The notes beneath the pieces were generated by a model. That model saw only the letters and a program-made list of their open reading frames with translations, did no database searches and was not told where the DNA came from. Of a stretch of 64,000 nucleotides of DNA, positions 37,787 through 64,000 are shown one piece after another; positions within the stretch are counted from its first letter, which is position 1; each line of letters starts with the position of its first letter. The DNA is from an uncultured Lentisphaeraceae bacterium (GTDB lineage: Bacteria > Verrucomicrobiota > Kiritimatiellia > RFP12 > UBA1067): positions 50,054 to 114,053 of the forward strand of contig CAYLRN010000004.1 in NCBI GenBank assembly GCA_964386385.1, in the 5' to 3' direction. The position numbers and the translations under genes are program-made.

Positions 37787-37827
37787 GTCCCTTCCTTTTT
37801 CTGCTTCTCCACTTCAGGTGGGAGATT

Positions 37828-38898: not shown

Positions 38899-38905
38899 GG
38901 ACTTG

Positions 38906-38914
38906 ATTATAGCA
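38906..38914 (-). promoter_or_regulatory. extended -10 TGCTATAAT, 7 nt from the ATG (leaderless candidate)
   Basis: Minus strand reads TGCTATAAT-caagtcc-ATG(38898). Confidence 0.45.
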
Positions 38915-38946
38915 CAACTGCGGCGCTGGCGGGGAGGGCGATCCGC

Positions 38947-41589
38947 CTAGCGGAGGATCACCATCGTGCCGTGGGCGGTGTCCACGGCAAGCCGGCCGTC
39001 GCGGACGGACACGCGGCTCGCCGTCGACCGGACGCCGTTCACCACGACCGTCCACGTCTTCAAATTCTCCTCGCCCGCAACCGTCCGCAGTTCAAGGCCG
39101 GTGTCGACGCTCGCGCGGAGACGTCCCGCCGCGTCTACGGGCGCGTTCACGAGATGCAGGACGCCGTTCGGCGCGGGGACGAACTTCGTGATCGCGCCCG
39201 CGCCACGCCCGAAGTCGACCTTGAGCGCGTTGAAGGCGACGTTCTCCTCCCGCAGCTCGTCCATGTCCAGGACGGCGCCCGCGTCCACCTGCACGGCCCC
39301 GTACGTGGTGAACTTCCACTCCGCGTTCTTCGCGGAGAAGAGGTAGGGGACGTGCGCGTTGTAGGTGTAGTTGAACTGCGCGCTCAGCCGCGGGCCTTCG
39401 GTGGTCGTGGTAAACGTCTGGTTGGAGCGGACGTCCATGACCTCCCAGTCCACGCCGTTCGGACTGGACTCGAGCGTCCAGTCCGTCGCGTGCGGCTTGT
39501 CCGCGCCGTCCGCGTTCACGCAGCGGCGCAAGGCGTAGGACGCCGGCGCGTTGTCCTTCCAGGACTTCTTCACGCGCCACGCCACGGTCTCCCACGTCTC
39601 CGGGACGTCGGGGCGTATGACGGAGTTCGTGAAGAGGACGCCGCTCGACCAGTCGGTGATGTGCGCCGAAGCCTGGTTCGTCGCCGGCAGGTCGTAGCAG
39701 TTCACCTTCCAGCCGTCCCTGTTGACCCTGACGAACGTCACCACCCCGGCATCCGCCGTGCCGCCGCCGAGGATCGGGCGTCCCTGCGCGCCCGGGTAGA
39801 GCGCTTTGTAGATATTGAAGCTCCACTTCATCACGGGCTTCGCGGACGAGACGAAGCCCTCCGCGAGGTCGGCCGCCGCCGTGCCGTCCTCCGCGCCGGT
39901 CGCGGCGCCCATGCACTGCAGACCGTCCGGCGAGAACATTCCGATCGACCCAAGCATGAGCGTGACGTCGCGGGAGAACTCCGGCACGGACGCATCCGTG
40001 AAATGGCGGGAGTCCACCATCGCCTTCCTCACGACGAAGCGCCACCAGTCGTTCGTGCAGACGCATCCGCCCATCCGCAGGACACCGCCCTTCACGTGAA
40101 TGGGCGTCCCCTTCGCGTCCGCCACCGTCGCGCAAGTCACAAGCCCCACGCCCTCCTTCACGAGTGGGACGTCCGGCGCCGTCGCGTAGACCGCCGCCAT
40201 CTCGTTCGTCTGCGCGGACGCCGGAATCACCACCGCCACGTCCGCGTTCGGCCCAAGCAGCCAGTTCTCGACCTCAAGCGTCGCATTTGGCGCAATGCGG
40301 ACTGTTGCGTTCGTCACGGCGAACGTCTTCACGCGGTTTGCCGTGCCGGCGCGGAAGTCGACACCACCGCCCGTCACGGAGAGCGCACGGACCGTCGCGT
40401 TCGAGAGCGTAAGCGTCCCCGCGCCGGTCTTGACGCAGGAAATCTCCGCGTTCGTGACGGCGCCGGCGAGAACGCCGTCAGCGTCTCCCTCGCCGAACGT
40501 CAGCGTCGTGCCGGCGGGCGCCTCCAGCAAGACGCCCTCCCCGAGGTCCAGTCCGTTCAGCATCTGCGACGTCTTCTTCAGTTTCAGCGTCAGCGCGAAG
40601 TCCGCGTCCGGCCACGTGCGCGCGACGACGTTCCCCGTCTGCGGGCCGTGCGGCAGGACGTCCGCCTCTTCGACGGCAAATGCCATGTCCTTGTCCGGCT
40701 TCGTGAACGGCCCTATCACCAGGTCGCCCGCGTGGTCCCAGACGACGTTCGTCGTGTTGAGCGTGGCGGCGGCATGGCGTCCCGGCTCCAGACGGACGTC
40801 GCAGTCGCCTTCGAAGCGGACGCACCCCTTCGGCGCCGTGTTCGCGACGAAGAGGCTCCATCCCCAGCCATACCATCCCTGGATCCTGACCGGCGCATTC
40901 GCGCCGCCGGCGAAGACCAGATCGCCGCCCGCCGCCGGAAGGCGCGCCACCGCCCGGCTTGCGAAGAGGGTGAGCGTTCCGGCATTGCCGACGTCGCCCT
41001 CCCTGTTCTCGAACGTCACGCGCATGGGCTTGGCGTTCTCGTTGCGCAGTTCGTGGACGGAGAGCTCGCTGCGCGAGCCGATGCGGACGACGTCGAAGAC
41101 GGCGGCGTCCGTCTGCGCCTTTTCCGCAAGGCGGACCTGCCGCATGAGGACGCCGGCGCCCGCGTCGCCGACGGCGTCCGTGGCGTGGAGCCAGAGACGT
41201 CCGTTTCCGCCCCTCTCGCCAAACGACATGTCGCCGACAAGGCCGTGTCCGTTGCTGAAGAAACTCTTCAGTTCCGACTTCTGCACCTCAAGCGTGGAGT
41301 CGTCGCCCGCGTCAGGGCCGACGGAGACGGGGACGTCGGCGCTGGTCGCATTTCCGTCGTCGTCGAGATTGAAGAGAAAGAGATGCGAATAGCGGCTGCC
41401 GAGGCAGACCGTCAGGTCGCCGTGCACCGTCATGCTCGTGTTCGTCCTCCCGGCGCATTCCGATCCGAGCACGACCGCTTCGCCACGCGGCACGACGAGA
41501 TCCGGCGCCCAGACCGTCTCCGCCCGCGCCGTTCCAAGGGCGAGGCCAGCCGCCACGCCAAACGCACATCCTGCAACCGCAACTTTCAT
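38947..41589 (-). CDS. large secreted protein with autotransporter-associated beta-strand repeats
   Basis: 880 aa. Signal MKVAVAGCAFGVAAGLALGTARA. PATR-like VKTGAGTLTLSNATV. Confidence 0.7.
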   Translation of the reverse strand: MKVAVAGCAFGVAAGLALGTARAETVWAPDLVVPRGEAVVLGSECAGRTNTSMTVHGDLTVCLGSRYSHLFLFNLDDDGNATSADVPVSVGPDAGDDSTLEVQKSELKSFFSNGHGLVGDMSFGERGGNGRLWLHATDAVGDAGAGVLMRQVRLAEKAQTDAAVFDVVRIGSRSELSVHELRNENAKPMRVTFENREGDVGNAGTLTLFASRAVARLPAAGGDLVFAGGANAPVRIQGWYGWGWSLFVANTAPKGCVRFEGDCDVRLEPGRHAAATLNTTNVVWDHAGDLVIGPFTKPDKDMAFAVEEADVLPHGPQTGNVVARTWPDADFALTLKLKKTSQMLNGLDLGEGVLLEAPAGTTLTFGEGDADGVLAGAVTNAEISCVKTGAGTLTLSNATVRALSVTGGGVDFRAGTANRVKTFAVTNATVRIAPNATLEVENWLLGPNADVAVVIPASAQTNEMAAVYATAPDVPLVKEGVGLVTCATVADAKGTPIHVKGGVLRMGGCVCTNDWWRFVVRKAMVDSRHFTDASVPEFSRDVTLMLGSIGMFSPDGLQCMGAATGAEDGTAAADLAEGFVSSAKPVMKWSFNIYKALYPGAQGRPILGGGTADAGVVTFVRVNRDGWKVNCYDLPATNQASAHITDWSSGVLFTNSVIRPDVPETWETVAWRVKKSWKDNAPASYALRRCVNADGADKPHATDWTLESSPNGVDWEVMDVRSNQTFTTTTEGPRLSAQFNYTYNAHVPYLFSAKNAEWKFTTYGAVQVDAGAVLDMDELREENVAFNALKVDFGRGAGAITKFVPAPNGVLHLVNAPVDAAGRLRASVDTGLELRTVAGEENLKTWTVVVNGVRSTASRVSVRDGRLAVDTAHGTMVILR

Positions 41590-41638
41590 TCCGCCATCCT
41601 TTCATTGTCATCCGCGCTCCAATTCGCAGAACGCAACA

Positions 41639-41666
41639 ATTATATCCATTTTTTTTTTCTGCGCAA
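41639..41666 (-). promoter_or_regulatory. sigma70-like promoter with an A10 tract in the spacer
   Basis: Minus strand reads TTGCGC (41666..41661), then AG-A10-TGGA (16 nt), then TATAAT (41644..41639). ATG at 41589. Confidence 0.5.
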
Positions 41667-41702
41667 TCGCATTTGCAGGCCTTTTGCGACATCAACCTCC
41701 TG

Positions 41703-41990
41703 CGGCGGCGGGGCGGGACGCCCCGCCCTGCCGGAAACGCATTGCCATGCGCATATGAACCGCATTGCCGTTCGCAACGGCGGGGCGGGACGCCCCGCCC
41801 TACCGATTCGCCGTTCGGCGCCTCAGCAACACCATTCGTCTGCCCATCGGTAGGGCGCGACGTCCCGTCGCGCCGTTCCGCCGGGTGCGGCGGCGGGGCG
41901 GGATGCCCCGCCCTGCCGGAAACGCTTTGCGTGCGCCCATGATGAGACAAGACCGCGGTGCGACGGTCGCGCAGGAGCGCGACCCTCCCT
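41703..41990. repeat. REP/BIME-like cluster
   Basis: Five or more hairpin units of the same families, lying between divergent giant-protein genes. Confidence 0.75.
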
Positions 41991-42045: not shown

Positions 42046-42098
42046 ATGTGTCGTTGCATTTTTGCATTCACGGGACATTTGTTTTCAGGAGACGCCGT

Positions 42099-45000
42099 AT
42101 GTTGACAAAGAACGTTTTTCCGCTTGAAGCGGGGACGCGCCTGGCGGGGCGCGTTTTCCTGTTCTGCGCCGCGTGCGCGGCCCTTGCCGCCGCGGGCGAG
42201 CCGTACGTCGAGGGGACGGGCGCGCAGGCCGTCGTGACGGACTTCCACGTCAGCCCCGGCACGAAGATCGTCTGCGACTTCGCATTCACGTCCGCCTCGC
42301 CCGTGCAGCAGCGCGTATTCGGCGTAGACAAGGACAACGCCACCACGCTCTCCTGCTCCCTCTACATCAACGGCGGCGGCGGCTACTCGTGGGCTTTCTG
42401 CGACGGCAACGGCAACTGGACGCCGTTCAGCGCGAACAACGAGATGAAGGCCTCGACCGACCGCTGGACGGCGACGCTGGACAGCCCGAACAACGTCGCC
42501 AGCCTCTGCAGCGACTCCACGAACATCGTGCAGACGATCGGGACGACGCGCACGCGCGCCTGCAGTCTTCCGATGACGCTCATGGCAACGGTCTGCGACA
42601 CCGACGGGACGCAGTTCCAGAACTACGGCAAGGTCCGCATCTACTCCTTCTCCGTCTCCGAATGCGGCGAGCCGGTCATGAACCTCGTCCCGCGCATCTA
42701 CAAGGGCGAGGGCGTCTTCTACGACACCGTCTCCCGCCGCGTCTTCGGCTCCTCCACTTCCACGCCGCTCGTGGCGGGCGACGACTGCGAGGAGCTGGCG
42801 GAGGAGGACGTCGCCGCGCCTGTCGCCGACCTCGTCCTTTCCGACGCCGCCGGCGGAGTCCATGTCGCGGCCGCGAACGCCCGCCACGCCAACGTCGTCT
42901 TCACCGATACGGCCGGCGTCTACACGGTCTCCGGCGGCCCGATCGCCATCTCCGGCAACGTCCGCAACGAGAGCGCCGCGGCGCAGACCGTTTCCGCGCC
43001 GCTGGCCGCGTCGGGGCCGCTGACTCCCCTTCTCGGCGGCGGTCTCTCGCTTTCCGACGTCGCCGGCGGCTCGCTCTTCGCCCCGGTCGGCACGAACGTC
43101 TCCGCCACGCTGAACGGAAACTGCGTCTTTCGCGGCGGCCTCTCGCTCAAGGGCAATCCGACGGTCGTCTCGCCACGCGTCTACGCGACGAGCGGCTTCA
43201 GCAAGGACCTCTCCGGGAAGTCCGACTCGTCCGTACAGGTGACGTACACGCTGCGGAGCGCGGGGACGGCGGCGTTCGGCGGGGGGCTGGAGGATCACAC
43301 GGGCGGCCAGCGCGGCGACGTGATCCTGCTGGACGGCAGCTTCACGTTCGGCGGCAACGTCCAGCCGAACGGCAACGACGGCTATCTCGTCTTCAGGGGC
43401 GGCGCCTCGCAGGTCGGCGGCCTCGACTGGGACAGCTCGCGCGGCTACAACTCCCGGCTCCACGTCGAATCCGGCGCATCGCTCGTCTGCGCCGGCGACG
43501 CGCTGCACCGCAACAGCTACGGACTCCACTACTACGTTGACGGAGAGTTCACCGTCAATGGAACGCTCACGTTCGCGGCCTCCAACTGCCGGCTCGTCTC
43601 CTCCGCCGGCACGGGCGTCGTCAACGTCCGGAAGATGAAGGCCGCCGGCATGGCGGAGAAGATCTCCGTCTCCGCGCTGAACGTCGGCCCCGGCGGCTTT
43701 TATGGCGCTTCCACGCCAATCGGCGCGATCGAACTGGGCGCGTGGACCGGCGACTTCACGGTCGGCGGCTCCCCGGTCTTCACCGGCACCACGCTGCGCG
43801 CGGCGACGCCCGGCGGAGCGCCGGCGCGGATCACGCTGGAGGGAGCGCCCGTCGCGTCGGGAACGCTGACGAAGACCGGCGCGGGCGAACTCGCGCTCGC
43901 GGCCGTCTCCTACCCCGGACTGACGGGGACGCTGGCGGTCAGGGAGGGAACGCTCGCCTTCACCGCCTCGACGGAGCTTGACGCGGCGGTGGAGATTTCG
44001 GACGGCGCCGGCGTCAGGGTCGCGGCGGGCAGAACGGCCGCACTGCGGTCGGCCTCGTTCGCCGGCGCGGCGACGCTCGCGTTCGGCGCGGCGCCCGCGC
44101 AGACCGGCGCGCTCTCCCTGCCGGCAGGCTCCCTATCGTCCGCGACGGCCGTCCTCGTCCGCATCGACGGCATCGCCCCGACGGCGGGGACGACTGCGAC
44201 GCTCGTCTCGGGCGCCGGCATTTCCGGCGCGGACCTTGCGAAGTTCAGCCTTGCAATGCCGGAAGGCGCGGAGGGCGAACTGTCCGTGCAGGATGGAAGC
44301 CTCGTCTTGAGCGTACGGACGTCCTCCACGGCGGCGGCGCGCGGGCTCGTCTGGACCGGCGCGGAATCGGCGGCCTGGGACGCCGCTGCCGCGAACTGGA
44401 CGGCGAACGGAGCCGCGGCGGTCTTTACCGCATACGACGATGCGTTTTTCGACGGCACGGACGCGGGCGACGGCCGGGTTGACGTGGCCGAGGGCGGCGT
44501 CACGGCCGGCGCCGTGACGTTCGACGCGGACAAGGCCTACTCCGTCGCGGGCGGAAAGATATCCGGGACCGCCCCCTTCACCATCAGGGGCGGCGCCGAG
44601 GTCACGCTCTCCGCGCCGCTTGACGGCCAGACGGTCGTCGTCACGAACGGCCTCCTGCGCGTCGGCGCCGCGAACGCCGAGCTGCTTGGCGACGGCGGCG
44701 CGTACGTGGAGGTCCGCGACGGCGGCACGTTCGACATCAACGCGACGACGAACACGGCCGACGCCATTCTCACGACGTACAACAAGAAGTTCCGCATCGC
44801 GGGCAAGGGCTTCAACGGACTTGGCGCGATCAACAACCTGGGCAAGGACGGTTCCACCGCGGCGCGCATCCACACGATAGAGCTGGCGGGCGACGCGACG
44901 ATCTCCGGCGCCACGCGCTGGGACATGCGCGTATATTCGGACGGACACAACGCCGGACGTCCGCAGGTCGTCGGCACGAACCACGCGCTGACCGTCAACG

Positions 45001-47942
45001 GCCCAGGTGGCGGGTACGTCGCCATGGTCGACACGGACGTCGACGTCGGCAAACTGGCCGTCTCCGGCGGCACGACGCTCAGCGTCGAGGGCGCGAGCGC
45101 GGTCGCGGCGAAGGACGGCGTGGACGTCGTAGGCTCCGTCCTCCAGTTCTGGGCCACGAGCCGCGCGTTCGAGACGCCGATTTTCGCCAAGGCGGGCGAG
45201 GACGGCGCGAAGCCGCGAATCGCCGCCGGCAGCGGAACGGCGAAGATCTCCGCCCCGGTCGTCGTCGAGGACGGCGCGGAGCTGACGCTGACGGGCTCCG
45301 CCACGGCAACGTACGCGGGCGGAATCCAGGGCGGCGGCGTCCTGAACGCGGCAGCAGGCTTCCACCAGTTCGCAGGCGACGTCGAGCAGGACGAGCTGTC
45401 AATCACGGGAGCGCGCGTCGTCTACGGCGACATGACGGAGGCCGGCAGCGGCAGAAAGTGGCCGAAGAAAGTCGCGATGGCGAGCGGATCGCTCTGCTTC
45501 GCGCCGTCGTCCAATTCCGTCTACGGCGGCTACGCCCTGACGTCGTCCAATTCCGTCTACGGCGGCTACGCCCTGACGTCGTCGGGGTCCGCCGCCGTGA
45601 ACTTCGTGCCCGGCTACACGGGCGGCGCGTCCAAATCCCCCGTAGTCACGGTCGAGGACACGACGCTTTCCGGGGACAACTTCAGGATCTGCCTCGGCCT
45701 CGGCGCGACGACTTCGGCGGACACGCGCCATGCCGGCTTCGCCACGCTCGGCAGGGGCTTCACGGCGGATTCCCTTGCTCAGATCGCGCTCGGCACGTTC
45801 GCGAACTTCCCCGCGAACGCCACGCTCACAATCGCCGACGGCGCGTCCGTCACGATGAAGAGCGGCGGCGACGTCACGCTCGGCTACTGGAGCGGCGAGA
45901 CGAACAACACGCACAGGCTGGTCGTGGAGGGCGGGACGCTCGACGCCTCCGCGGCAGTCCCGCTCCGCGTCGGCTACGACGCGCGCAACGCCGAGTTCCT
46001 CGTGAACGGCGGCACGGTCAAGGCGCCTGGCGTCGCCCTTCGCGCGCACAGCCAGTACAACATGAAGCCCATGGCGAACCTGTTCGACGGCATGGGCTAC
46101 GAGGTCTTCGGCATGGGCGGCGGACTCTTCGAGCTCGCCGGCGACTTCACGACGGAGCGCGCCTATCCGATGCTCCCGCAGATCTGGCTCGGCGGCGGCA
46201 CGCTCGTGAGCGCGGCGGACTGGTCGACGGACAACTTCCAGTACGGCATGTTCGAAACGTGGGGCGACATCGCCGGCACAAACGCCTTCACGCTTGCGAC
46301 GAACGGGAAGACGACCACGTTCCGCTCCGCCCTCCAAGGCAATTCCGCGGTCGAGATCGCCGGCGACGGCAGCTTCGTCTCCGACTGCTCCGGCGCGCAG
46401 GGCGGCGTTGAGGGTCGCTGGACTGTTGCGAACACCGGCACGGCGACGCTCAAGACGGCGGCGGCGTTCGCCTCTGGCCTCGCCCTCACCAACGGCGCGT
46501 CCGCGACAATCGACATCGGTCCGCGCACGAACTACGTGGCTCTCGCCGTCCTGTGCAACGCCAAGGCCGACTACGGCGTCAATCCGTTCACGGCGGGCGC
46601 ATTCCATTCCGCAGCATCCGTCATCCCGTCCCTCTTCGCGAAGGACGCGCAGAAGCTCTTTCTAGAACTGAAGTCGCCCACCTACACGGCCTACCGGGAG
46701 GAGGCGGAGTTCTACGTGGACGAGGCGGGGACATGGACGTTCGCGGCGACGTACGACGACCGCGGCGACGTCTACGTCGACGGCCGGCGCGTTGCGTACA
46801 ACTCGGCGTGGAACAACGTCGGCGTCGGTTCGGTAGACCTCGCCAAGGGATGGCACGTCCTCTCCATGACGTGCCAGGACGCCGCCGGCGGCGCCGGCCC
46901 CGCTGTCAGCGCGACGGAGCCGAAGGCGTTCTACGACCGCGGCATGGCCGTCGGCTTCCACAAGGGCGCGACGACGTCCACGGCCGCCGCAGACTATCTG
47001 CCCGTCAACGGGGCGAACATGAAGATGCGGCCGACGCGCTCGGTCCGCTGGACGTACCGCGACGGCCTCACCGACCTCGCCCAGCTCAATGGCTGGCCCG
47101 ACTGCACGTACGAGTTCACGATGGTGACGAACTCCATGCAGGCAATCCACAGCACGACGTGGCCTCTCGGCTTCACGGCAGTCCACTCCTTCGGCGGCTG
47201 GCTCTACGTCGAGCCGGAGGAGTCCGGCACGTGGGCGTTCGACGGCGTGTACGACGACCGCATCCACGTGGCAATCGACGGCAGGACGGTATTCGCGAAC
47301 GGCACCTACAACAAGGCGGCCTCGTCGACTGCCGAAGTGACGGCCGGCTGGCACTCCTTCCGCGTGACGGTGTGCGACAAGGTCGGCGGCATTTCATGGA
47401 GTGCGGTGGACGGCTATGGCGCGGCCCTCTACGTCAAGCGTCCATGCGACGCGACGAAAGTCCCGTTCGACGAGCGCAGCGTCTACATGACGGCGCATCC
47501 GTTCGGGTTCATCGGCGGCGAGCTGTTCGTGGGCGAGGGCTCCACGCTCGCGAACGCCTCCGCGAACGGCCCCGCGGAAATCGCGGGAACGCTCTCCGGA
47601 ACGGGAACGCTCACTGGCCCCTACAGGCTCACCGGCACGTGGAACGTGTCTGTCGAGGGCGGCCAGACGCTCAGGGCCGCGACGTGGGGCGAAGGCGCGT
47701 ACGCGGACACGCTGGCGAACGCCCGGATCCACGTCTCGATGAACGCGAAGCCGGTCAAGGCAAAGTGGGACCTCGGCCCAGCGCTGGGGCTTGAAAGCAG
47801 AAGCGAAGCGGAGCTTGCGGCGATGCTGTCGGCGGATCTGAACGGAGAGCCATATGAAAACGGCTTCAGGCTTGACGTGTCCGACGGCCGCCTCGTGCTG
47901 GTGAACCTCAAGCCCGGCTGCACGGTCCTCATCCTGCGCTGA
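42099..47942 (+). CDS. giant (~1947 aa) secreted surface protein: beta-strand repeats plus two C-terminal PA14-like modules
   Basis: ATG 42099 (MLTKNVFPLEAG...CAACAALAAAGEP). PATR-like LTKTGAGELALA. PA14-like blocks (GTWTFAATYDDRGDVYVDGRRV; GTWAFDGVYDDRIHVAIDGRTV). Confidence 0.8.
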   Translation: MLTKNVFPLEAGTRLAGRVFLFCAACAALAAAGEPYVEGTGAQAVVTDFHVSPGTKIVCDFAFTSASPVQQRVFGVDKDNATTLSCSLYINGGGGYSWAFCDGNGNWTPFSANNEMKASTDRWTATLDSPNNVASLCSDSTNIVQTIGTTRTRACSLPMTLMATVCDTDGTQFQNYGKVRIYSFSVSECGEPVMNLVPRIYKGEGVFYDTVSRRVFGSSTSTPLVAGDDCEELAEEDVAAPVADLVLSDAAGGVHVAAANARHANVVFTDTAGVYTVSGGPIAISGNVRNESAAAQTVSAPLAASGPLTPLLGGGLSLSDVAGGSLFAPVGTNVSATLNGNCVFRGGLSLKGNPTVVSPRVYATSGFSKDLSGKSDSSVQVTYTLRSAGTAAFGGGLEDHTGGQRGDVILLDGSFTFGGNVQPNGNDGYLVFRGGASQVGGLDWDSSRGYNSRLHVESGASLVCAGDALHRNSYGLHYYVDGEFTVNGTLTFAASNCRLVSSAGTGVVNVRKMKAAGMAEKISVSALNVGPGGFYGASTPIGAIELGAWTGDFTVGGSPVFTGTTLRAATPGGAPARITLEGAPVASGTLTKTGAGELALAAVSYPGLTGTLAVREGTLAFTASTELDAAVEISDGAGVRVAAGRTAALRSASFAGAATLAFGAAPAQTGALSLPAGSLSSATAVLVRIDGIAPTAGTTATLVSGAGISGADLAKFSLAMPEGAEGELSVQDGSLVLSVRTSSTAAARGLVWTGAESAAWDAAAANWTANGAAAVFTAYDDAFFDGTDAGDGRVDVAEGGVTAGAVTFDADKAYSVAGGKISGTAPFTIRGGAEVTLSAPLDGQTVVVTNGLLRVGAANAELLGDGGAYVEVRDGGTFDINATTNTADAILTTYNKKFRIAGKGFNGLGAINNLGKDGSTAARIHTIELAGDATISGATRWDMRVYSDGHNAGRPQVVGTNHALTVNGPGGGYVAMVDTDVDVGKLAVSGGTTLSVEGASAVAAKDGVDVVGSVLQFWATSRAFETPIFAKAGEDGAKPRIAAGSGTAKISAPVVVEDGAELTLTGSATATYAGGIQGGGVLNAAAGFHQFAGDVEQDELSITGARVVYGDMTEAGSGRKWPKKVAMASGSLCFAPSSNSVYGGYALTSSNSVYGGYALTSSGSAAVNFVPGYTGGASKSPVVTVEDTTLSGDNFRICLGLGATTSADTRHAGFATLGRGFTADSLAQIALGTFANFPANATLTIADGASVTMKSGGDVTLGYWSGETNNTHRLVVEGGTLDASAAVPLRVGYDARNAEFLVNGGTVKAPGVALRAHSQYNMKPMANLFDGMGYEVFGMGGGLFELAGDFTTERAYPMLPQIWLGGGTLVSAADWSTDNFQYGMFETWGDIAGTNAFTLATNGKTTTFRSALQGNSAVEIAGDGSFVSDCSGAQGGVEGRWTVANTGTATLKTAAAFASGLALTNGASATIDIGPRTNYVALAVLCNAKADYGVNPFTAGAFHSAASVIPSLFAKDAQKLFLELKSPTYTAYREEAEFYVDEAGTWTFAATYDDRGDVYVDGRRVAYNSAWNNVGVGSVDLAKGWHVLSMTCQDAAGGAGPAVSATEPKAFYDRGMAVGFHKGATTSTAAADYLPVNGANMKMRPTRSVRWTYRDGLTDLAQLNGWPDCTYEFTMVTNSMQAIHSTTWPLGFTAVHSFGGWLYVEPEESGTWAFDGVYDDRIHVAIDGRTVFANGTYNKAASSTAEVTAGWHSFRVTVCDKVGGISWSAVDGYGAALYVKRPCDATKVPFDERSVYMTAHPFGFIGGELFVGEGSTLANASANGPAEIAGTLSGTGTLTGPYRLTGTWNVSVEGGQTLRAATWGEGAYADTLANARIHVSMNAKPVKAKWDLGPALGLESRSEAELAAMLSADLNGEPYENGFRLDVSDGRLVLVNLKPGCTVLILR

Positions 47943-49346: not shown

Positions 49347-50495
49347 ATGACTGCGGCGGAGCGGAAGGTCGCGCTCGTCGCGGGCGTAGGGACGACGCCG
49401 GCGGTGCTGACGGAGACGGTCTGGGGGCTTGCCCACCAGACGCCACCGGTGGTGCCGGACGAGATCGTCGTGTTGACTACGCAGACCGGCCGGCAGAGGC
49501 TTGAGCGCGAAGTGATGGCGGGCGAGCCGTCCGTATGGTCGCGCCTCGTCTCCGCGCTCAAGGAAGAGGGGCTGCCGGTGGACGGAAAACTCGCGTTCGG
49601 AGAGACCTCCATCCGCGTCTTCCCTGACGCGCGGAGGAATCCGCTTGCCGACCTGCGCTCCGGCGACGAGAACCTACGGGCCGCCGACTTCATGCTCGCG
49701 CAGCTGCGCCAGTACACGGAAAGCCCGGACTTCGTCGTGCTCACGTCGATCGCGGGCGGGCGCAAGACGATGAGCGCGCTGCTCCTCTCCTGCATGACGC
49801 TGCTTGGGCGGGCTGACGACAGGGTCTACCACGTCCTCCTTCCTCCCGAATTCGAGGGACGTCTCGATCCGCCCTTCTACTTCCCCGAAAATGGCGTCTT
49901 GCACCGGACATCCGCCAATCCTCCCTGCGAACTGGCGGGGGCGGCGGCTAAGATCGAACTCTTCGAGGTGCCGTATGTCCGGATGCGCGGATGGTACCAG
50001 GAGAAGTTCAAGACGATTCCGCCGTCCTACGAGACGCTCGTGTCGAAGGTGCAGTCCGTGGCGCCGGCCGCCGTCGTGCCGACCGAAATCGCCATCGACG
50101 TCTGGAACGGCACGGCGACGGTGAACGGCCGCCATGTGTCCATGAGCCGACCGTGCTTCGCGGCGCTAGTCCTTCTCGCGTCCGGCTGCGCCGCGAAGGA
50201 CCTGCACGAACGCCTCTGCGGCCTGCACGCCGGAAAAGGCGGAGCGGACTGCGACTGGCTTTCGTCGTTCAGGGAGGATCGCGGACGTTTCTCTAGCCGG
50301 GAATATACGCAAGACCTGACGAAGGTGATGTCCGAACTCCGCAAAAAGCTGAAGGAGGCTGGGTTCGCGGACGCGGAAAGCCTCGTGCCGATGCGCAGCC
50401 GCCCCGTCGTCTTCCCGCTTTCCCGCGTTCACTGGAAGAACCGCAACCGCTTCACGGACGTCTGCGGATGTCCGTATGCGAAGGAACAGGTCTGA
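49347..50495 (+). CDS. CRISPR-associated CARF protein (Cas_NE0113-like) with C-terminal winged-helix region
   Basis: VALVAGVGTTPAVLTET...LTSIAGGRKTMSA CARF core. The C-terminus VNGRHVSMSRPCFAALVLLASG resembles an OmpR-type wHTH. Confidence 0.7.
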   Translation: MTAAERKVALVAGVGTTPAVLTETVWGLAHQTPPVVPDEIVVLTTQTGRQRLEREVMAGEPSVWSRLVSALKEEGLPVDGKLAFGETSIRVFPDARRNPLADLRSGDENLRAADFMLAQLRQYTESPDFVVLTSIAGGRKTMSALLLSCMTLLGRADDRVYHVLLPPEFEGRLDPPFYFPENGVLHRTSANPPCELAGAAAKIELFEVPYVRMRGWYQEKFKTIPPSYETLVSKVQSVAPAAVVPTEIAIDVWNGTATVNGRHVSMSRPCFAALVLLASGCAAKDLHERLCGLHAGKGGADCDWLSSFREDRGRFSSREYTQDLTKVMSELRKKLKEAGFADAESLVPMRSRPVVFPLSRVHWKNRNRFTDVCGCPYAKEQV

Positions 50496-57164: not shown

Positions 57165-58322
57165 ATGAAGAATCAAGTGCTTCTTGTATCAGATCAGCCA
57201 ATACCGAATTTCATACCGATTCTGAACGACGAACTGAAGCCCAAATCGGTGACGCTCGTCGTTTCCGACAAAATGAGGACAAAAGCCGAATGGCTCAAGC
57301 GCGAAATCAGAAAACAGCAGGTTGAAGTTCTAGACGACATCCTGATTGGCGACAGGGAATCAGACATAGCCGCCGTTCAGAATCGCCTTCTAGAATGGGC
57401 AGGCGAGCATGAGGAACTCCTGACGGAAAGCACGTTAAACATCACAGGCGGCACGAAGCCTATGGCAATCGCCGCCCAGGAACTCTTCCGCAGCGAGCAA
57501 CGCCCTGTCTTCTATCTTGACATTCAATCGGACACCGCGTCCTGGATTGCCGACGGCAAAAAACCAAGACCATCGGTTCAACTCAGAAACTCGCCGACAT
57601 TGGCGCAGTTCTTTGGCTTGATGGGAATGGCAATGGTGGGTGGCGATTTTAAATCGCAACTTGAAAACGAAAAATGGCGCTATTTCTGCGACGAGATTGC
57701 ACAGAACGTTCGTGAGTATGCCTCAGCGCTCGGCGGATTGAACTGTCTCGCAAGCGACGCCGAGCGCAATCGGGAGCTGCTGTTCAACCCACGGGAACAA
57801 GAATTCAGATTGCCCAAATGGGCAGACCTTGTTGAAATGTTGTCGGCTCACGAACTGATTCGTTCAAATCGCAACGGCAAAAAGGAATTCGTCTCGCCAG
57901 ATGCGCGAAGATTTTGCAATGGAATTTGGCTGGAACACTATGTCTTCACGCTGCTGAAGGAATTCGGGTTCAACAAGAAGCGCGCGTTGATGAATGTCAA
58001 GGTCAGGCGCGAAAGCACGGGACTTTCGTCGATTGAAAACGAATTCGACGCGGTCGTGCTTCACAAGAACACATGCTATATCGTCGAGTGCAAGACGCGA
58101 AACATGAAACCGAGCAAGAAAAACGCCCATGTAGACATAGGGGACTCCGCCGTCTACAAACTGGCAGAACTTTCAAGCGAACTGGGGCTTCGCGCAACTG
58201 GCATTCTCGTGTCGGCGCGCGAAGTGCGCAAGGAAGACAAAGACCGAGCCAAATACCGCAATGTAAAGGTTTTCAGCGACCTAACGACCCTCAAGGAGGA
58301 TTTCGCGAAGGTTTTCGGATGA
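57165..58322 (+). CDS. can2: Card1/Can2-like CARF + PD-(D/E)xK nuclease effector
   Basis: GGGAG RBS, ATG 57165. CARF motifs LLVSDQPIPN and NITGGTKPMA. Nuclease GIWLEHYV and EFDAVVLHKNTCYIVECKT. Confidence 0.8.
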   Translation: MKNQVLLVSDQPIPNFIPILNDELKPKSVTLVVSDKMRTKAEWLKREIRKQQVEVLDDILIGDRESDIAAVQNRLLEWAGEHEELLTESTLNITGGTKPMAIAAQELFRSEQRPVFYLDIQSDTASWIADGKKPRPSVQLRNSPTLAQFFGLMGMAMVGGDFKSQLENEKWRYFCDEIAQNVREYASALGGLNCLASDAERNRELLFNPREQEFRLPKWADLVEMLSAHELIRSNRNGKKEFVSPDARRFCNGIWLEHYVFTLLKEFGFNKKRALMNVKVRRESTGLSSIENEFDAVVLHKNTCYIVECKTRNMKPSKKNAHVDIGDSAVYKLAELSSELGLRATGILVSAREVRKEDKDRAKYRNVKVFSDLTTLKEDFAKVFG

Positions 58323-58564
58323 CTCATCAGCACGGACTTCCCCGAAGGAACCTCGTCGCGACGTACCCGTGCGGCACGTACGTCTTCGAGCTGAAGGTGG
58401 GCGGGACGGCGGCGGAGGCCCTGGGGCTGATTCGCGAGCGGGGGTACGCGAAGCCGTACCTCGCGCAGGGTCTCCCCGTATGGGCGGTCGGCCTCGCGTT
58501 CGACCTGGAGACGCGCAGCTCGTCGACGCCGACGTCGATAGGGTGCGGTAAGGTCGACGGCTGA
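58319..58564 (+). pseudogene. C-terminal remnant of a PD-(D/E)XK (DUF1703-partner) family gene
   Basis: ...GTYVFELKVGGTAAEALGLIRERGYAKPYLAQGLPVWAVGLAFD... matches only the family C-terminus. No N-terminal part is present. Overlaps the can2 stop. Confidence 0.5.
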
Positions 58565-58727
58565 CGAAAACCCCCCGAAAACTGCCGTCAGCCGTCAAAG
58601 GATAATCTGGAAAAGATTGGATTTCCCTGCGAATTTCGCAATTCGCCTTTTCAGCCTCGCGCTTCAAGCCGTCAGCCGTCAAAAACGCCCATTTGCCCCT
58701 TTACTTCAAGGCCGAAAATATGGTACA
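58565..58727 (+). promoter_or_regulatory. CRISPR leader
   Basis: AT-richer 163 bp directly 5' of repeat 1. Contains the exact 16-nt direct repeat gccgtcagccgtcaaa at 58584 and 58668. Confidence 0.6.
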
Positions 58728-59295
58728 TTGCAATTGTTGATGAAGCCGAAAGGCTATTGAGACGCAACAAGCGGCGCCAGGAACACCACCGCCGCAATGG
58801 TTGCAATTGTTGATGAAGCCGAAAGGCTATTGAGACAAGGTCCCGTACGACTCTTCCCCCTCCTGCCATGTGACTTGCAATTGTTGATGAAGCCGAAAGG
58901 CTATTGAGACCCCGCGTCAGGCGGGCGTCGCCTCCTCGTGGTTTCCACGGCATTGCAATTGTTGATGAAGCCGAAAGGCTATTGAGACGTCGCGGTGCGA
59001 TGCGGCGCAAGGCATTCCTGCAAGTCCGGATTGCAATTGTTGATGAAGCCGAAAGGCTATTGAGACTCCGGTCAAGTTCGCGTACCTTCCCGCAGTCGTT
59101 GAGGTATTGCAATTGTTGATGAAGCCGAAAGGCTATTGAGACGGGCGGCACTGGGGCGGCACTGGGGCGGCTCTGGGGCAATTGCAATTGTTGATGAAGC
59201 CGAAAGGCTATTGAGACTCGTCGCCTTGGTTCTTCGTCGCTTGTCCGCTGCCCCTCTGATTGCAATTGTTGATGAAGCCGAAAGGCTATTGAGAC
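58728..59295 (+). CRISPR. CRISPR array, 8 identical 36-nt repeats and 7 spacers (37-42 nt)
   Basis: Repeat TTGCAATTGTTGATGAAGCCGAAAGGCTATTGAGAC at 58728, 58801, 58875, 58953, 59031, 59107, 59182 and 59260. The 3' end ATTGAGAC is the 8-nt tag type. AGCC-GAAA-GGCT mini-hairpin. Confidence 0.95.
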
Positions 59296-59352
59296 TCCTC
59301 GGATTTTGATAGCGAATGTTGTAGTGTTGATCGATGTGAACGGAGGAAAAGA

Positions 59353-59466
59353 ATGAGGGTAGTATTTGGTACGTGTTCGGCGGCCGCGGTGTTCATGGCT
59401 TCGATCGTGGTGGCGTTCGGAGTCGCGGCATGGCGTGTCTCGAAAGGGGGGAGGCTAGCGAAGTGA
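59353..59466 (+). CDS. 37-aa single-TM peptide
   Basis: GGAGG RBS at 59342. MRVVFGTCSAAAVFMASIVVAFGVAAWRVSKGGRLAK. Confidence 0.35.
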   Translation: MRVVFGTCSAAAVFMASIVVAFGVAAWRVSKGGRLAK

Positions 59467-59672
59467 TAGGCAAGGCAATTGGATGCATATCGTGCCTCGG
59501 GGCGGCGGCAATTGTCACGTCGGTTGCGTGGGCGCTGGCGATTCGCGCCCACCTGTGGGTCACCTTGCATGTGACGGGGGAGCCGTGGAGCGCGCTTCTG
59601 CTGATGCTCGCCATGCTGTACGCGGCGTGGCTCGTCGTGAAATGGCTTTTAAAAAGAAAGGAAAAGGAATGA
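59463..59672 (+). CDS. 69-aa two-TM peptide
   Basis: GTGA start/stop overlap. VIGKAIGCISCLGAAAIVTSVAWALAI...ALLLMLAMLYAAWLVVKWLLKRKEKE. Part of track ORF 59373..59672. Confidence 0.35.
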   Translation: MIGKAIGCISCLGAAAIVTSVAWALAIRAHLWVTLHVTGEPWSALLLMLAMLYAAWLVVKWLLKRKEKE

Positions 59673-59750
59673 AGCACAAGCTGATGGGCGTCCCAATGGA
59701 CGTCTGCTGCGCCGAGCAGGTCGCGGCGTACCGCCCTTTGGCGGGAGCGA

Positions 59751-60326
59751 ATGGCGGATTGCCTCCGCATCCCGCAACGAACATGGGCGATGCGCTTCAT
59801 GGGACTCGTCCATTTCTTCGAGCCGCGCGATGGCGAAACTGGTAAACAGGCAGCCGCCCGCATCTCCGAACGCAATTTCGATTTCGCCTACGATAGGTTC
59901 TACGGAAACGACAGACTGCGCGAAGGCCTTGACGAGATTGGCATACGGCTGCGCGTTGACAACAACCGGCATGTCCAGTATGTCCGTACAATTCTCTACT
60001 ATTCCGGCTGGATGTACGTAAAGTTCGCCCGGACAATCGCCCGTGCCGTCGGCAAGTCCTCATGGGAAAAGATTGCCGAACACGACACCATCCTTCGGTT
60101 GCTGGAACACGACATCAATCGTTTTCAGCGGACAGGCGATTCGTCCGAGGAGGAATTGTCGCGGGAGGACGTCGTCTCGTTCTTCCAGTCTTTGGCGCGC
60201 CTCTACCGACGCTACAACGCGCCGTTCTCCGTGGAGGACGTGCAGGAACTGGCGCCGCTCAAAAGATCCGTCGCCCAGCGCATCATAGACGAAATGTGCG
60301 CGGCGTCCGATGGCGGTTCGCTGTAG
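59751..60326 (+). CDS. hypothetical protein (segment 1 of a same-frame triplet)
   Basis: 191-aa helical ORF with no motif I recognise. The alternative ORF 59669..59845 (ATGA-coupled, good RBS) overlaps its 5' end. Confidence 0.45.
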   Translation: MADCLRIPQRTWAMRFMGLVHFFEPRDGETGKQAAARISERNFDFAYDRFYGNDRLREGLDEIGIRLRVDNNRHVQYVRTILYYSGWMYVKFARTIARAVGKSSWEKIAEHDTILRLLEHDINRFQRTGDSSEEELSREDVVSFFQSLARLYRRYNAPFSVEDVQELAPLKRSVAQRIIDEMCAASDGGSL

Positions 60327-60353
60327 GATCTTGAAACTCGTCCACACATCGCA

Positions 60354-61988
60354 TTGGATGGCAAAGGACGCCCGGTGTTCTCTCTGCCGCAGAATGGCCA
60401 TTTCGCGGAGGGGGCGGACACGGTTGTGTTCGCGTTTCGGGAGGCGTCTGACAGTTCTGTGCCGCCGTTCGCCCATGCCATATACCATCGTACGTCAAAA
60501 GGCGACCATGTCCTGTCATGGGACAGGCATCGCGAATACGGATCTGGAGTCCCCTGCAGGGGACGGCACATCGTCCGTTCCATCACGCGGTTCGAGCCTG
60601 GGACAGACAAGCCGCAGGTCGAAGTGATTCCGCAGGTCTGCCTTGACCAGGAACGAACGCATCTGCTTCTGCGTCTGCGAGATTCGGCAAGGATGGCGTG
60701 TGGATATGAACTTGACGCAAATGGCTCTGACGCCGGCATCGTTTCCACGCGACAGAAACTCTCCGCCGGAACACGCTGCCAGATTCTCCCGTTGACCGGA
60801 GGCGACTTGAACGTCGCCGTCATGTGCGGGGGCGAAAGGTCGCCTCTTCCGATTTCCGAAAACGGCGTTCTGACTATTCCCGGCGCGGCGGACGAGCTGA
60901 TCGTCGGAGAGGATGTCTACGAAGTCCGGACAGTCGCCGACGACTACTTGAACATGGACGATCGATGCCGCCATTTCCGACATCCAGGGCGACTGTTCTT
61001 CGAGCGTTCGCGCAATCCGTTCACGGACGTTTGCCGTGCAGCAGGAGAAAACCTCTCCGCATGGTATCTGTTCGATGATGGCGGCAGTTTGCGCAGGATG
61101 CCAATGCCTCTTTCCGGCGATGCAGACCAAACCATCCCGAACGAAATCCTGTGGAAGAAGGGAAGCCTTGAAGTTCGCGTGAACGATACGCCGCTGTTCA
61201 GGCGCGCTGTCACTTTTACGGAGAAACTGGACATACGGGCATTTGAACGTCCGCTTGACCTGGAGGCGGACGCGAGGCGGATAGCCGTGGTTGGCGACGA
61301 ACGGCTTCCAGTCGACATACTGCCGCGCACCAGGCGGATCGAGATCCAGTGCCACGGATTCACCCTCTCGCTTCCAATTAGCCGGACGGGCGTATATTTC
61401 GAGTGCGCGGACACGGCAATTCCGATTCCGCGTGAACGTCCCGGCGCATCGTACGCGCGCGAACTTGCGCGGAGCGACTTCGAGCGGCTGAAGTGCAGCA
61501 TCGCAACGGAATCAGATGCGGACAATGTTTTCGTGGCGCGGGGAAATACGACGCTTGTCACCCTTGACGAACGCAGATTCACCGGTGGCAAGCTGCTTGC
61601 GGACGAGGCTCTGCAGAAAACGGACAGCGACCATTTCGCCATCTGCGTAAGGCATGAGGGAAGACGCGGGCCGGAACTTTCATTCTACAAGTTCCATCTC
61701 TACGATCCGCAGCGCACAAACGTCGCGGACGCAGGAGAGAATCCACACAGCGTGGCATGGAGACATGAAGTTGAAACGGATGACCTTGTACTGACATACT
61801 GGATTGCGTTTTCAGACCGCAACCGGCAGAAGCATCTTGCGTTCTTTCCGGCGCATCGCCAAGACGAATCCCCCATTGTCGTCGAATCCGGGCCGAAGGA
61901 GACGTATCTACATGTTGAAGACGAAGCGACTGGACGCTGCCGCGAGACGATTCGCATCCCCGGCTTCTTTAGGCGAGACATCGATTGA
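60354..61988 (+). CDS. hypothetical protein (segment 2, TTG start, no RBS)
   Basis: 544-aa ORF in the same frame as 59751..60326. Separated from it only by TAG 60324..60326 and 9 sense codons. Confidence 0.5.
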   Translation: MDGKGRPVFSLPQNGHFAEGADTVVFAFREASDSSVPPFAHAIYHRTSKGDHVLSWDRHREYGSGVPCRGRHIVRSITRFEPGTDKPQVEVIPQVCLDQERTHLLLRLRDSARMACGYELDANGSDAGIVSTRQKLSAGTRCQILPLTGGDLNVAVMCGGERSPLPISENGVLTIPGAADELIVGEDVYEVRTVADDYLNMDDRCRHFRHPGRLFFERSRNPFTDVCRAAGENLSAWYLFDDGGSLRRMPMPLSGDADQTIPNEILWKKGSLEVRVNDTPLFRRAVTFTEKLDIRAFERPLDLEADARRIAVVGDERLPVDILPRTRRIEIQCHGFTLSLPISRTGVYFECADTAIPIPRERPGASYARELARSDFERLKCSIATESDADNVFVARGNTTLVTLDERRFTGGKLLADEALQKTDSDHFAICVRHEGRRGPELSFYKFHLYDPQRTNVADAGENPHSVAWRHEVETDDLVLTYWIAFSDRNRQKHLAFFPAHRQDESPIVVESGPKETYLHVEDEATGRCRETIRIPGFFRRDID

Positions 61989-62054
61989 GGACGTGGGCTG
62001 ATCTGTTTCGTCGTCCACCGAAAGACCTACTTCGGGGAACGCCACGGCTACGAT

Positions 62055-63266
62055 GTGCTGAGTTCCGGCTTCTTCCTGAATGCGCCGGCGGAGAAGACGA
62101 CGGAAATCGGAAACGACCCATATGGTCTTCGTGCCGCATTCGCAGGCAGGGATGGTCTGATTGGCGAGGACGGCGATGCGATCCTTCGCGCCATGACGTC
62201 GAGGGACTCCGCCACGCAGAACTATGTCGCCGGCTTCCTCGACCGCATGAAGGACGCAGTGTCGGAACTGAACGTCTTCACATATCTCAATGCCTACTGG
62301 AACAAGATACCACGTCGCAGCGCAGACCGGCGTCCAAGCGGCTATGCGTTCATGGCGGGAGCGCATTTTGCGAAAATCCTTTCAGACGAGGTGGCGGCCG
62401 AGCCGTATCGTGGACTGTGGAGTCGGCTGCTAATCGGCTACCCTCATTTGAAACCGCAAAGCGACCGCTTGATACGGAAATATCTGTCGCGCGCAAGCCA
62501 TCTTGACAAACTGCCTGTTGCGTTGAAGTCTTCGCTTTGGAGGAAAGTGCGAAAGGCCATCGGACACACCTCTCCAATGGGGTATTTCATGTTCACGAGA
62601 AACCACGTGTTCTCCTATCCGCAGCTGGCGGAAGCAGTTCGCCGCGCATATCGACGCGGAACAAGTCTGCGCGAACTGCAGAACAGAATCCCCAAAACTC
62701 CTTTAGGCGACAGGGCTCGAAACGCCATAGCCAAACTCTATTCAGCCTGGATGAAGGTTGCACGAGGCGAATTGTGCGTTGAAGAAATCGCATGGAAGTC
62801 TGGTACGATCTACCGCAGCGTCCATGCAGAATTTCCGCAAGGCAATCTTGGATGTTTCAGCTGGAAGTTTTTCGAGCCGGCCTTTGACGGTTTTATCGAT
62901 TCGCCAAGCCTCTTTTACGACGGCTACGAGGACGGTTTCAGGGAGGTTCGCGGAAACACATGGGGTGAGAATTGCTACCTTTCCGACGACGACATCGAAA
63001 AATTCATTGAGACAATGGGGCTGCGTCTTCACAATTGGCGGCTTAATCCGACACTGGGAGAGGCGCAGGGCTTGCGGAACGTTTTCGTTTTTCTCGAAAG
63101 CGTGGACGCCCACGTCAATCTCCTGCCTGATCGCAAGGACCCTCGCATGGGGTTGCTGGACGGCATTGAGAACGAGGCCTGGTTCCAATGCAAACTTGCA
63201 CGAAAGTCATCGGCGAAGAAGTGGTCAGAACTTGACCGCATGAAAGAGGAGATGCAAAGAAAGTGA
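62055..63266 (+). CDS. hypothetical protein (segment 3, GTG start, no RBS)
   Basis: 403-aa ORF in the same frame again. Separated by TGA 61986..61988 and 22 sense codons (GRGLICFVVHRKTYFGERHGYD). Confidence 0.5.
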   Translation: MLSSGFFLNAPAEKTTEIGNDPYGLRAAFAGRDGLIGEDGDAILRAMTSRDSATQNYVAGFLDRMKDAVSELNVFTYLNAYWNKIPRRSADRRPSGYAFMAGAHFAKILSDEVAAEPYRGLWSRLLIGYPHLKPQSDRLIRKYLSRASHLDKLPVALKSSLWRKVRKAIGHTSPMGYFMFTRNHVFSYPQLAEAVRRAYRRGTSLRELQNRIPKTPLGDRARNAIAKLYSAWMKVARGELCVEEIAWKSGTIYRSVHAEFPQGNLGCFSWKFFEPAFDGFIDSPSLFYDGYEDGFREVRGNTWGENCYLSDDDIEKFIETMGLRLHNWRLNPTLGEAQGLRNVFVFLESVDAHVNLLPDRKDPRMGLLDGIENEAWFQCKLARKSSAKKWSELDRMKEEMQRK

Positions 63267-64000
63267 ATGCCGAATTCAACGCCGTCCACGCCTATGAGGA
63301 CGTTCGCAGAAAATACATTCAGTTCGTGCTCGACCGCGCCTTGGGCGTATATCCGAATTTCGGCGAACGCGCCCGTACTTGAAGCGCATCTGGACGTCCG
63401 ACGACCCGAAGACCGCGCTCTTCGCCCGTCCCGTAGTCGAACCGCTCTTCCCATATCCGTCTTCGGGACGGTCGATCCAGTCGCTCGTCGCCGCCGGAGT
63501 TCTGCACCCGGCAATGACGCGCTACGTGTCGGGGTTCCTGTTGAAGGACGGCGCGTCGCTCTACAGGCACCAACTCGCCGCCATCGAGGCGAGCCGAGAA
63601 CGCCATGTCGTCGTCGCATCCGGCACGGGTTCAGGAAAGACGGAGTGCTTTCTCTATTCAATGCTGAACAATCTGCTCTTCTCCGAGACAAAGGCATCGC
63701 TGACGTGGCCCGGAGTCCGCATCCTGCTCATATATCCGATGAACGCGCTCGTCAACGACCAGTTCGCGCGCATTCGGAAACTGCTTGAAAAAAGCCCTGA
63801 TGGCATCACAGTCGGCATGTACACGGGGCAGACGAAAGAAGATGACAGGCGTGAAATCCGCAGACGCCCTCCACACATCCTCATAACCAACTATTCGATG
63901 ATGGAGTATATGCTGCTGCGGCGTGCGGACAACGCGCTCTTCGAGGGGGGGCTTCTTCAGGCGATAGTACTCGACGAGGCACATCTCTATTCGGGAGACG
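63263..64000 (+). CDS. SF2 DEAH-box helicase, YprA/Lhr/DrmA/DruE-like, 5' part (runs off window; apparent frameshift near 63379)
   Basis: GTGA-coupled start VNAEFNAVHAYEDVRRKYIQFVLDRAL... stops at 63380. The frame from 63379 continues LKRIWTSDD...LYRHQLAAIE..VVVASGTGSGKTE (motif I), YPMNALVNDQ (Ia), ILITNYSMMEYML (Ib), VLDEAHLYSG (II). Confidence 0.8.

Follow-up and report, generated by a model that had tools for sequence, protein, structure and literature searches.

A likely inactivated gene pair resembling Druantia type III beside a type III-B CRISPR array in an uncultured Lentisphaeraceae bacterium

Behind a clustered regularly interspaced short palindromic repeats (CRISPR) array in a 64,000-nt stretch of DNA from an uncultured Lentisphaeraceae bacterium (assembly GCA_964386385.1, contig CAYLRN010000004.1, positions 50,054 to 114,053; hereafter the window) lies a chain of open reading frames (ORFs) ending in a DEAH helicase, which raises the question of whether these ORFs form a working defence operon of several small genes or something else. 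An initial annotation, made by eye, proposed a translationally coupled multi-gene operon that included two tiny transmembrane (TM) peptides, as a candidate defence module that was either new or related to Druantia or DISARM. Coordinates are positions in the window unless a related locus is named, and all features of the module lie on the + strand. We consider it likely that positions 59731–64000 hold a recently inactivated anti-phage module of two genes, an upstream partner and a helicase, built like Druantia type III.

Two adjacent genes and their lesions

On sequence evidence, the region 59731..63266 is a single gene, not several coupled genes. A three-frame translation showed frame 0 to be open from the first available ATG (59751) to the stop codon at 63264–63266 save for two stops, and the product read through these stops (1,171 residues) retrieved 15 proteins of 1,143–1,247 aa (P0001–P0015). 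The top match, P0001, is 85% identical in amino acids over 100% of the length, and the contig that encodes it (locus L001, 5264–9555) aligns with window positions 59731–64000 at 86% nucleotide identity. All 15 close relatives, and most of the distant ones, are encoded by one ORF. The stop/start overlaps on which the initial annotation had built its coupled operon (GTGA at 59463, ATGA at 59669 and GTGA at 63263) are all present in the sequence; given the intact homologues, however, the chain of genes reduces to two, the partner and the helicase. The ATG at 59669 starts an out-of-frame ORF of 58 codons that resembles other loci only through the nucleotide homology of the true partner gene.

A base-by-base alignment with L001 revealed four lesions, namely a 5' truncation and two nonsense codons in the partner and a 19-nt deletion in the helicase. 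The partner is a 5'-truncated pseudogene for a protein of ~1,200 aa with a predicted DruH-like architecture. Its first ~22 codons are missing, since homology starts only at 59731, which corresponds to codon ~23 of the L001 orthologue; this lost N-terminus is conserved (consensus FSWE.FFR), and the native upstream region is gone as well. The first nonsense codon (TAG, 60324..60326, residue ~221) stands where L001 has CAG and falls in the linker that joins the N-terminal helical domain to the first immunoglobulin (Ig)-like domain, in keeping with which residues 215–223 of the structural model are of low confidence. The second (TGA, 61986..61988) stands where L001 has TGG and replaces W775, a residue of the last Ig-like domain that is invariant in 15/15 sequences of the closer partner alignment (A1, 15 sequences).

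The 5' end of the helicase gene lies at 63263..63382, its GTG start overlapping the partner stop (GTGA). L001 has an ATGA overlap and an intact helicase ORF of 1,730 aa at the same junction, whereas the window lacks 19 nt (CATTGGGAAAGCGCACGAG) at ~63374, a frameshift by which the helicase frame is lost after ~37 codons and the frame from GTG 63263 stops after 39 codons. The remainder, with a candidate TTG restart at 63379, occupies the shifted frame at 63379..64000 and continues past the window end, the gene running on for ~4.4 kb. Motif I (GTGSGKT, 63622–63642) and motif II (DEAH, 63973–63984) are both in place, as had been read by eye. The full remainder is available in a separate public assembly (L011, Logan SRR10277277), which was found with the product of a 191-aa ORF, a search with the Card1 product having given only a 2.9-kb contig. 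Positions 4407–9404 of L011 encode an intact 1,665-codon helicase remainder with motifs I, II, III and VI and a CxxC...CxxC (Cys4) cluster.

The stops and the deletion might be sequencing or assembly errors in a locus that is intact in the organism, a concern raised by the assembly quality of the window, where other defence genes, for example hsdS, look split too. However, L011 is 100% identical to the window over 59259–64000 (4,742 nt) and carries the same lesions, although it may share its source sample or reads with the window, so that the support it gives them is not fully independent. Moreover, two substitutions together with a 19-nt deletion are unlike typical homopolymer errors, and we regard an intact locus as extremely improbable.

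The same ORF chain could also be a working, translationally coupled split-gene system, in which three polypeptides would make up the partner, and a 39-aa peptide plus a 1,665-aa protein the helicase. In line with this idea, the first stop sits in an inter-domain linker, restart codons are present (TTG 60354, GTG 62055 and TTG 63379, the last overlapping the upstream stop) and the helicase remainder is intact with all its motifs. Yet the second stop removes the invariant W775, with the next start only 23 codons on, inside the last Ig-like domain, and the gene has lost both its native upstream region and the codons for the conserved N-terminal ~22 residues. Considering, in addition, that the partner is a single ORF in 15/15 close relatives and in most distant ones, and that two neighbouring genes with four independent lesions between them bear the signature of decay, a functional split system appears quite improbable. 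Recoding was ruled out in view of the two different stop codons, the frameshift and the long normal ORFs nearby. In recommending that a "repaired version" be cloned, the initial annotation had suspected the stops; decay was not weighed there.

Decay therefore remains the preferred reading of these lesions. Compared with L001, the window partner gene has a ratio of nonsynonymous to synonymous substitution rates (dN/dS) of 0.20 and the helicase gene one of 0.22, values like that of a Cmr control gene (0.21), which indicates that the divergence accumulated mostly under purifying selection and that the decay is recent relative to the split of the two loci. A precedent for such a pair persisting in truncated or pseudogenized form would be yjiT/yjiV of Escherichia coli K-12, which we take to be decayed Druantia III genes, though they represent another lineage, the canonical YjiT/YjiV families. 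By analogy with Druantia III, where both genes are required in every system tested and removing either abolishes protection (10.64898/2026.05.13.724758), the system in this genome is most likely non-functional.

A helicase clade near DruE and a partner with a predicted DruH-like layout

From its sequence matches, the helicase is a YprA/DruE-type superfamily 2 (SF2) defence helicase. Our defence library was PADLOC-DB v2.0.0 (5,027 models), in which the best model was DruE3 (PDLC00037), which the window fragment matched at 8.7e-46, the L011 remainder at 5.9e-112 and the orthologues at 1e-117 to 1e-133; these matches span only RecA1, RecA2 and the following regions (370–445 bits vs 2,179 for E. 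coli DruE). The DruE1, DruE2 and DruE4 models ranked below DruE3, and DrmA, DpdJ, BrxH and Cas3 far lower. Sequence matches in the PDB included 9tu7 ('DEAD/DEAH box helicase', 2,108 aa; E 6.5e-57), which is probably E. coli DruE because its entry series continues to 9tud (DruH), and YprA (6znp). A housekeeping helicase of the Lhr/RecQ type, one of the outcomes that the initial annotation had seen as fatal to its proposal, was ruled out, as every NCBIfam helicase match, among them RecQ and the ligase-associated DEXH helicase, stays far under its cut-off (best 115 bits vs 874; recQ 18 vs 640) and the gene neighbourhood varies and contains many defence genes. The partner, for its part, belongs to no metabolic or structural family in these searches.

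The helicase had been placed by eye in the YprA/DrmA/DruE clade with a possible link to DISARM, and of this placement the DruE part stands. DISARM and ARMADA (ArmA–D) share with the pair a central helicase of the same YprA-like defence branch, and both were rejected. For DISARM, DrmA models matched only at 2e-15 to 2e-6, and none of the loci has a gene for DrmB, DrmC or a methylase next to the pair; for ARMADA, no BrxHII-like helicase or PglX-like methyltransferase is adjacent, and the similarity of the clade to E. coli ArmC (180–200 bits) is below that to DruE. Druantia types I, II and IV have a DruE-family helicase as their signature gene, type IV consisting of DruE, DruF and DruL (PMC8565338). 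These types were also ruled out, since their extra proteins were unmatched by the partner or the tested HNH protein in PADLOC and the loci comprise only two to three genes.

Searching the database with the helicase yielded ~80 clusters (P0130–P0208, with P0130, P0131 and P0133 among the intact homologues) that scored 377–3,986 bits, followed by a sharp fall to ≤272 bits for canonical DruE. In an all-against-all BLASTP comparison, clade members matched canonical DruE proteins at 260–340 bits, while the canonical proteins matched one another at ~1,050–1,100 bits. On these scores the helicases form a clade separate from the canonical DruE clades examined. Canonical DruE comprises compact forms of 1,540–1,720 aa and forms of ~2,100 aa, carrying both YjiV_N and MZB; precomputed annotations of YjiV_N (PF27116) and MZB (PF09369, DUF1998) were present in the canonical sequences examined and in none of the ~80 clade clusters. 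In the region of the conserved CxxC...CxxC cluster of the clade, E. coli DruE likewise has a Cys cluster, and the alignment to the DruE1 model extends across this region. Bell et al. (PMC12458937) distinguish a 'type III-like' branch of YprA-type helicases, and the contig accessions of the module loci do not occur in the portion of their supplementary table that was searched.

Two length classes are found in the clade: a short one of ~1,700 aa (window, L001) and a long one of ~1,920–2,110 aa (L002, L003, L006, L007, L014, L015), the helicases of ~2,110 aa having a C-terminal extension of ~385 aa beyond the short form. The C-terminal ~390–410 residues gave no Pfam match in L002, L003, L014 and L015 and no PDB sequence match in L002, and the HxKxxxxD motif of PLD domains was not found in the extension. 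A motif HDRFM(I/V/H)V(S/T)Y(I/V/L)D is conserved there in L002, L003, L006 and L007, and we presume that it could be a degenerate PLD-like site or another nuclease site.

The partner family is recognized by none of the libraries searched: there was no sequence match in Pfam, NCBIfam, PADLOC or the PDB, the last searched with profile A1 as well. This agrees with the initial annotation, which could not match it to known Dru or Drm proteins; the PADLOC search included the DruH models. When 1.84 billion representative proteins were searched exhaustively with a profile, 63 partner clusters were detected at E≤1e-3, 41 of them at E≤1e-30. The partner gene lies directly upstream of the helicase gene in every related locus examined (L001–L007, L014, L015, L018), with defence genes adjoining in several, which answers the call for a check of whether this neighbourhood is conserved. 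Even partners as remote as 23–26% identity (L014, L015) are directly followed by a DruE-like helicase, and in L018, found from a distant helicase, the upstream protein of 1,000 aa is homologous to the partner family (hhalign probability 98.7%). The lineage occurs in Bacteroidales, Kiritimatiellae, Verrucomicrobia, Gemmiger and other metagenome-assembled genomes, at least one from a sheep rectum sample, and its spread across phyla is patchy.

In the further locus L019 (3674–13510), a helicase of 2,169 aa with a faint MZB match is preceded by a protein of 1,102 aa with a weak relation to the partner family (hhalign 80%, 66 columns) and none to DruH. Judging by these matches, the L019 lineage may be a bridge between the clade described here and canonical Druantia III.

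Many loci of the lineage contain a third gene. A gene with an HNH_2 domain (PF13391), of ~253–258 aa, stands beside the pair in L002–L005, L014 and L018, in the last on the opposite strand. It accompanies the long-helicase versions and is absent from the window and L001, which have the short form, and from L015. The HNH protein of L002 matches only HNH and type II restriction-enzyme models in PADLOC. In L007, an ORF of 252 aa (13450–14208) lies at the position held by the HNH_2 gene elsewhere.

To compare the partner with DruH, we used the protein of E. coli ATCC 8739 annotated as 'STY4851/ECs_5259 family protein' as the genuine reference; its gene adjoins DruE, ZorA2/ZorB2/ZorE and ARMADA genes. 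As a control, this DruH matched ten PADLOC DruH3 models and corresponds to PDB 9tud, and its homologues carry the Pfam domains YjiT_N and YjiT_2nd. DruH has been described as a protein of ~1,100 aa with an N-terminal helical domain, six Ig-like domains and a helical domain at the C-terminus (10.64898/2026.05.12.722862). The AlphaFold2 (AF2) model of P0001 has helices at 1–213, strands at 228–806 (~six beta-sandwich units) and helices at 822–1198, the corresponding segments in the AF2 model of E. coli DruH being 1–247, 260–831 and 842–1118. Thus, the predicted layout of the partner, with about six Ig-like domains between two helical domains, agrees with that of DruH, the comparison being one of layouts and not of superposed structures. 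Foldseek searches of the PDB with both models returned the same classes of multi-Ig proteins (contactin-2, complement C5 or alpha-2-macroglobulin-type and bacterial S-layer proteins); for the partner these were only generic multi-Ig matches, and the control search with the DruH model showed that the library lacks 9tud.

Taken together, the pair shares with Druantia type III two co-directional genes; a partner of ~1,100–1,200 aa directly upstream of the helicase, often overlapping it; a YprA-like DEAH helicase of 1,700–2,100 aa with a Cys4 zinc module and DruE3 as its top PADLOC model; the predicted layout of the partner; and neighbouring defence genes. It differs from the subtypes III-A and III-B in that the partner has no detectable similarity to DruH (YjiT_N, YjiT_2nd, DruH3, NCBIfam) and the clade helicases have no Pfam YjiV_N or MZB matches and score as low as stated above against canonical DruE. 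Further differences are that no PLD domains were recognized in the clade, the long versions having their C-terminal extension and often the separate HNH_2 gene, and that both genes are disrupted in the window copy.

Several points weigh against a kinship with Druantia III and against inactivation, and they also bear on another explanation, namely that this is a helicase-centred module not of the Druantia kind, either a pair serving to repair DNA or maintain mobile elements, or a defence system that acts by another mechanism and has a partner unrelated to DruH. No sequence homology between the partner and DruH is detectable: none of 27 diverse partner members matched any PADLOC model, and hhalign comparison with a 29-sequence DruH profile (A2) gave a probability of 1% for A1 and 4% for profile A3, the A3 match joining co-linear N-terminal domains at a non-significant level. 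The model of P0001 is of moderate confidence only (mean predicted local distance difference test, pLDDT, 72.9; predicted template modelling score, pTM, 0.38), and the invariant positions of the partner family fall mainly in its Ig region and C-terminal domain, those of DruH clustering N-terminally. The clade is about as distant from canonical DruE as is E. coli ArmC (220–246 bits), with no Pfam MZB match at E≤0.1 in the clade helicases tested and no YjiV_N match. The anti-phage role of the lineage is drawn by analogy with Druantia III, and the intact 1,665-codon helicase ORF, with its possible TTG restart, may still allow residual helicase expression.

On the other side, DruE models rank top among all those in PADLOC, whereas the NCBIfam helicase matches stay far under their cut-offs; gene order, gene sizes and partner architecture are as in DruH–DruE; and the neighbours include RM (restriction–modification), CRISPR, Fic and AAA_14 genes, in a module spread patchily across phyla. 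Overall, a module outside the Druantia kind seems unlikely, though it deserves some weight, and we retain the interpretation of the pair as built like Druantia type III. Whether the intact relatives constitute a fifth kind of Druantia-like system, combining a distinct DruE-like clade with a DruH-shaped partner that has diverged beyond recognition or been recruited independently, and in many cases with an HNH protein in trans replacing the built-in PLD, is a more tentative proposal, to which we give somewhat less than even weight.

Genomic surroundings of the pair

The module lies in a defence island of lower GC (guanine plus cytosine) content, as the initial annotation had described it: GC is 55–59% in the module region vs 65–70% across most of the window, and Cmr type III-B, CARF, Card1-like and type I RM genes are nearby. 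Upstream lies a type III-B Cmr set whose genes are flanked by those of two CARF-family effectors, a Card1-like protein (CARF plus PD-D/ExK nuclease, 57165–58322) and a CARF5-type protein (49347–50495). L001 has Csx1 (CARF-HEPN) instead of Card1, an accessory effector swapped between close relatives. The CRISPR leader (~58554–58727) stands 5' of the array (58728..59295, +; core TTGCAATTGTTGATGAAGCCGAAAGGCTATTGAGAC), which is context and not part of the module. The array comprises eight repeat copies spaced 73–78 nt apart, the last of which (59260–59295) directly precedes the ORF chain, again as annotated.

The Logan contigs show the array as one repeat: in L011 1–329, aligned with window positions 58441–59295, the last repeat directly follows the leader and first repeat. 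L001 likewise has a single repeat, its array probably having collapsed too, and its spacer content is therefore unreadable.

The position of the module inside a type III-B locus, just after the array in the window and between csx1 and the CRISPR leader with cas1–cas2 in L001, could mean that it is a CRISPR accessory coupled to Cmr or to cyclic-oligoadenylate (cOA) signalling. However, the window and L001 are close relatives (86% nucleotide identity) and in L002–L007, L014, L015 and L018 the pair has no called cas genes as neighbours, which makes the CRISPR embedding probably one lineage-specific insertion. Since, moreover, neither protein was found to contain a CARF or other cOA-sensing domain, we judge an accessory role very improbable and continue to treat the pair as a separate module. 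Elsewhere, the neighbours are an ApaLI-type RM pair (L015), Fic, Schlafen/AlbA_2-type and AAA_14 genes (L003) and also unrelated genes.

The order of leader and module differs between the two close relatives. The window leader and first repeat are 85% identical to L001 14143–14350, which in L001 lies 3' of the helicase, whereas in the window leader and array are 5' of the module. This difference points to a rearrangement whose breakpoint falls within the partner gene, at its 5' end. In L011, no cas1 or cas2 was found within the ~250 nt left after the helicase, unlike in L001. At L011 9529–9654 (~5.5 kb past the window end), a new gene starts after the helicase with MKPIATDIADFEAMRKRGQLYVDKTALLHRLI, which presumably resembles the N-terminus of AAA-ATPase-like/PD-(D/E)xK proteins.

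Between the array and the partner gene lies a junction segment (59296..59730, +) that is non-homologous to the related locus and lies outside the module. It gave no blastn, tblastn or tblastx match in the related loci or the rest of the window, matched no Rfam family, and showed no promoter- or terminator-like site in a scan. The two tiny 'TM peptide' ORFs (59353–59466 and 59430/59463–59672, +), which had been counted as members of the module, lie within this segment. Their sole Pfam match is a holin family below threshold (E 0.027), and no counterpart was found upstream of the partner gene in the related loci; as far as sequence comparison goes, they are not conserved and not part of the module.

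Further upstream, the type I RM genes at 28–32 kb (28217–32014) look decayed. An hsdM ORF of 748 aa has an N-terminus that matches middle and C-terminal HsdR models (REase_I, residues 8–205), and the S subunit gene (hsdS) is split into overlapping ORFs at 30460–31260 and 31091–32014. GC falls from ~0.66 to 0.55 near 28 kb, so that hsdR may be cut off at the edge of the island. Two very long + strand ORFs, at 37762–41853 (1,363 aa) and 42048–47942 (1,964 aa), have 64–71% GC and no Pfam match, and they may be real giant proteins or spurious.

Possible mechanism and implications

DruE has been described as a dimeric 3'-to-5' DNA helicase acting at junctions of single-stranded DNA (ssDNA) and double-stranded DNA, and DruH either as an ssDNA-binding protein whose binding is competitive with ATP or as a 3'–5' exonuclease that makes the substrate (10.64898/2026.05.13.724758; 10.64898/2026.05.12.722862; 10.64898/2026.05.13.724313). 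By analogy, in the intact copies the partner would recognize or process exposed phage ssDNA or forked DNA, and the helicase (~1,700 aa, with its Cys4 zinc module) would then unwind that DNA in the 3'-to-5' direction. In copies that have the C-terminal extension, the HNH protein or both, these could supply the degradation. The published N-terminal exonuclease site of DruH may not apply to the partner, because conservation in the partner family lies elsewhere; its concentration in the Ig and C-terminal regions suggests that the partner may sense a cue other than that of DruH.

For the bacterium itself, the locus would be a dead remnant among other decayed defence genes and is best left out of any count of active systems. 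For the family, it leads to a rare and undescribed Druantia III-like lineage (~80 helicase and 63 partner clusters) that went unrecognized by the family libraries searched, and models of this lineage would improve the tools that annotate defence systems. The lineage appears to retain the Druantia III blueprint with the recognizable DruH and the accessory domains of DruE exchanged and an HNH protein often added. An intact operon could show which features of DruH–DruE systems, such as the sensing of ssDNA or forks and the coupling of degradation to the helicase, are indispensable and which can be exchanged.

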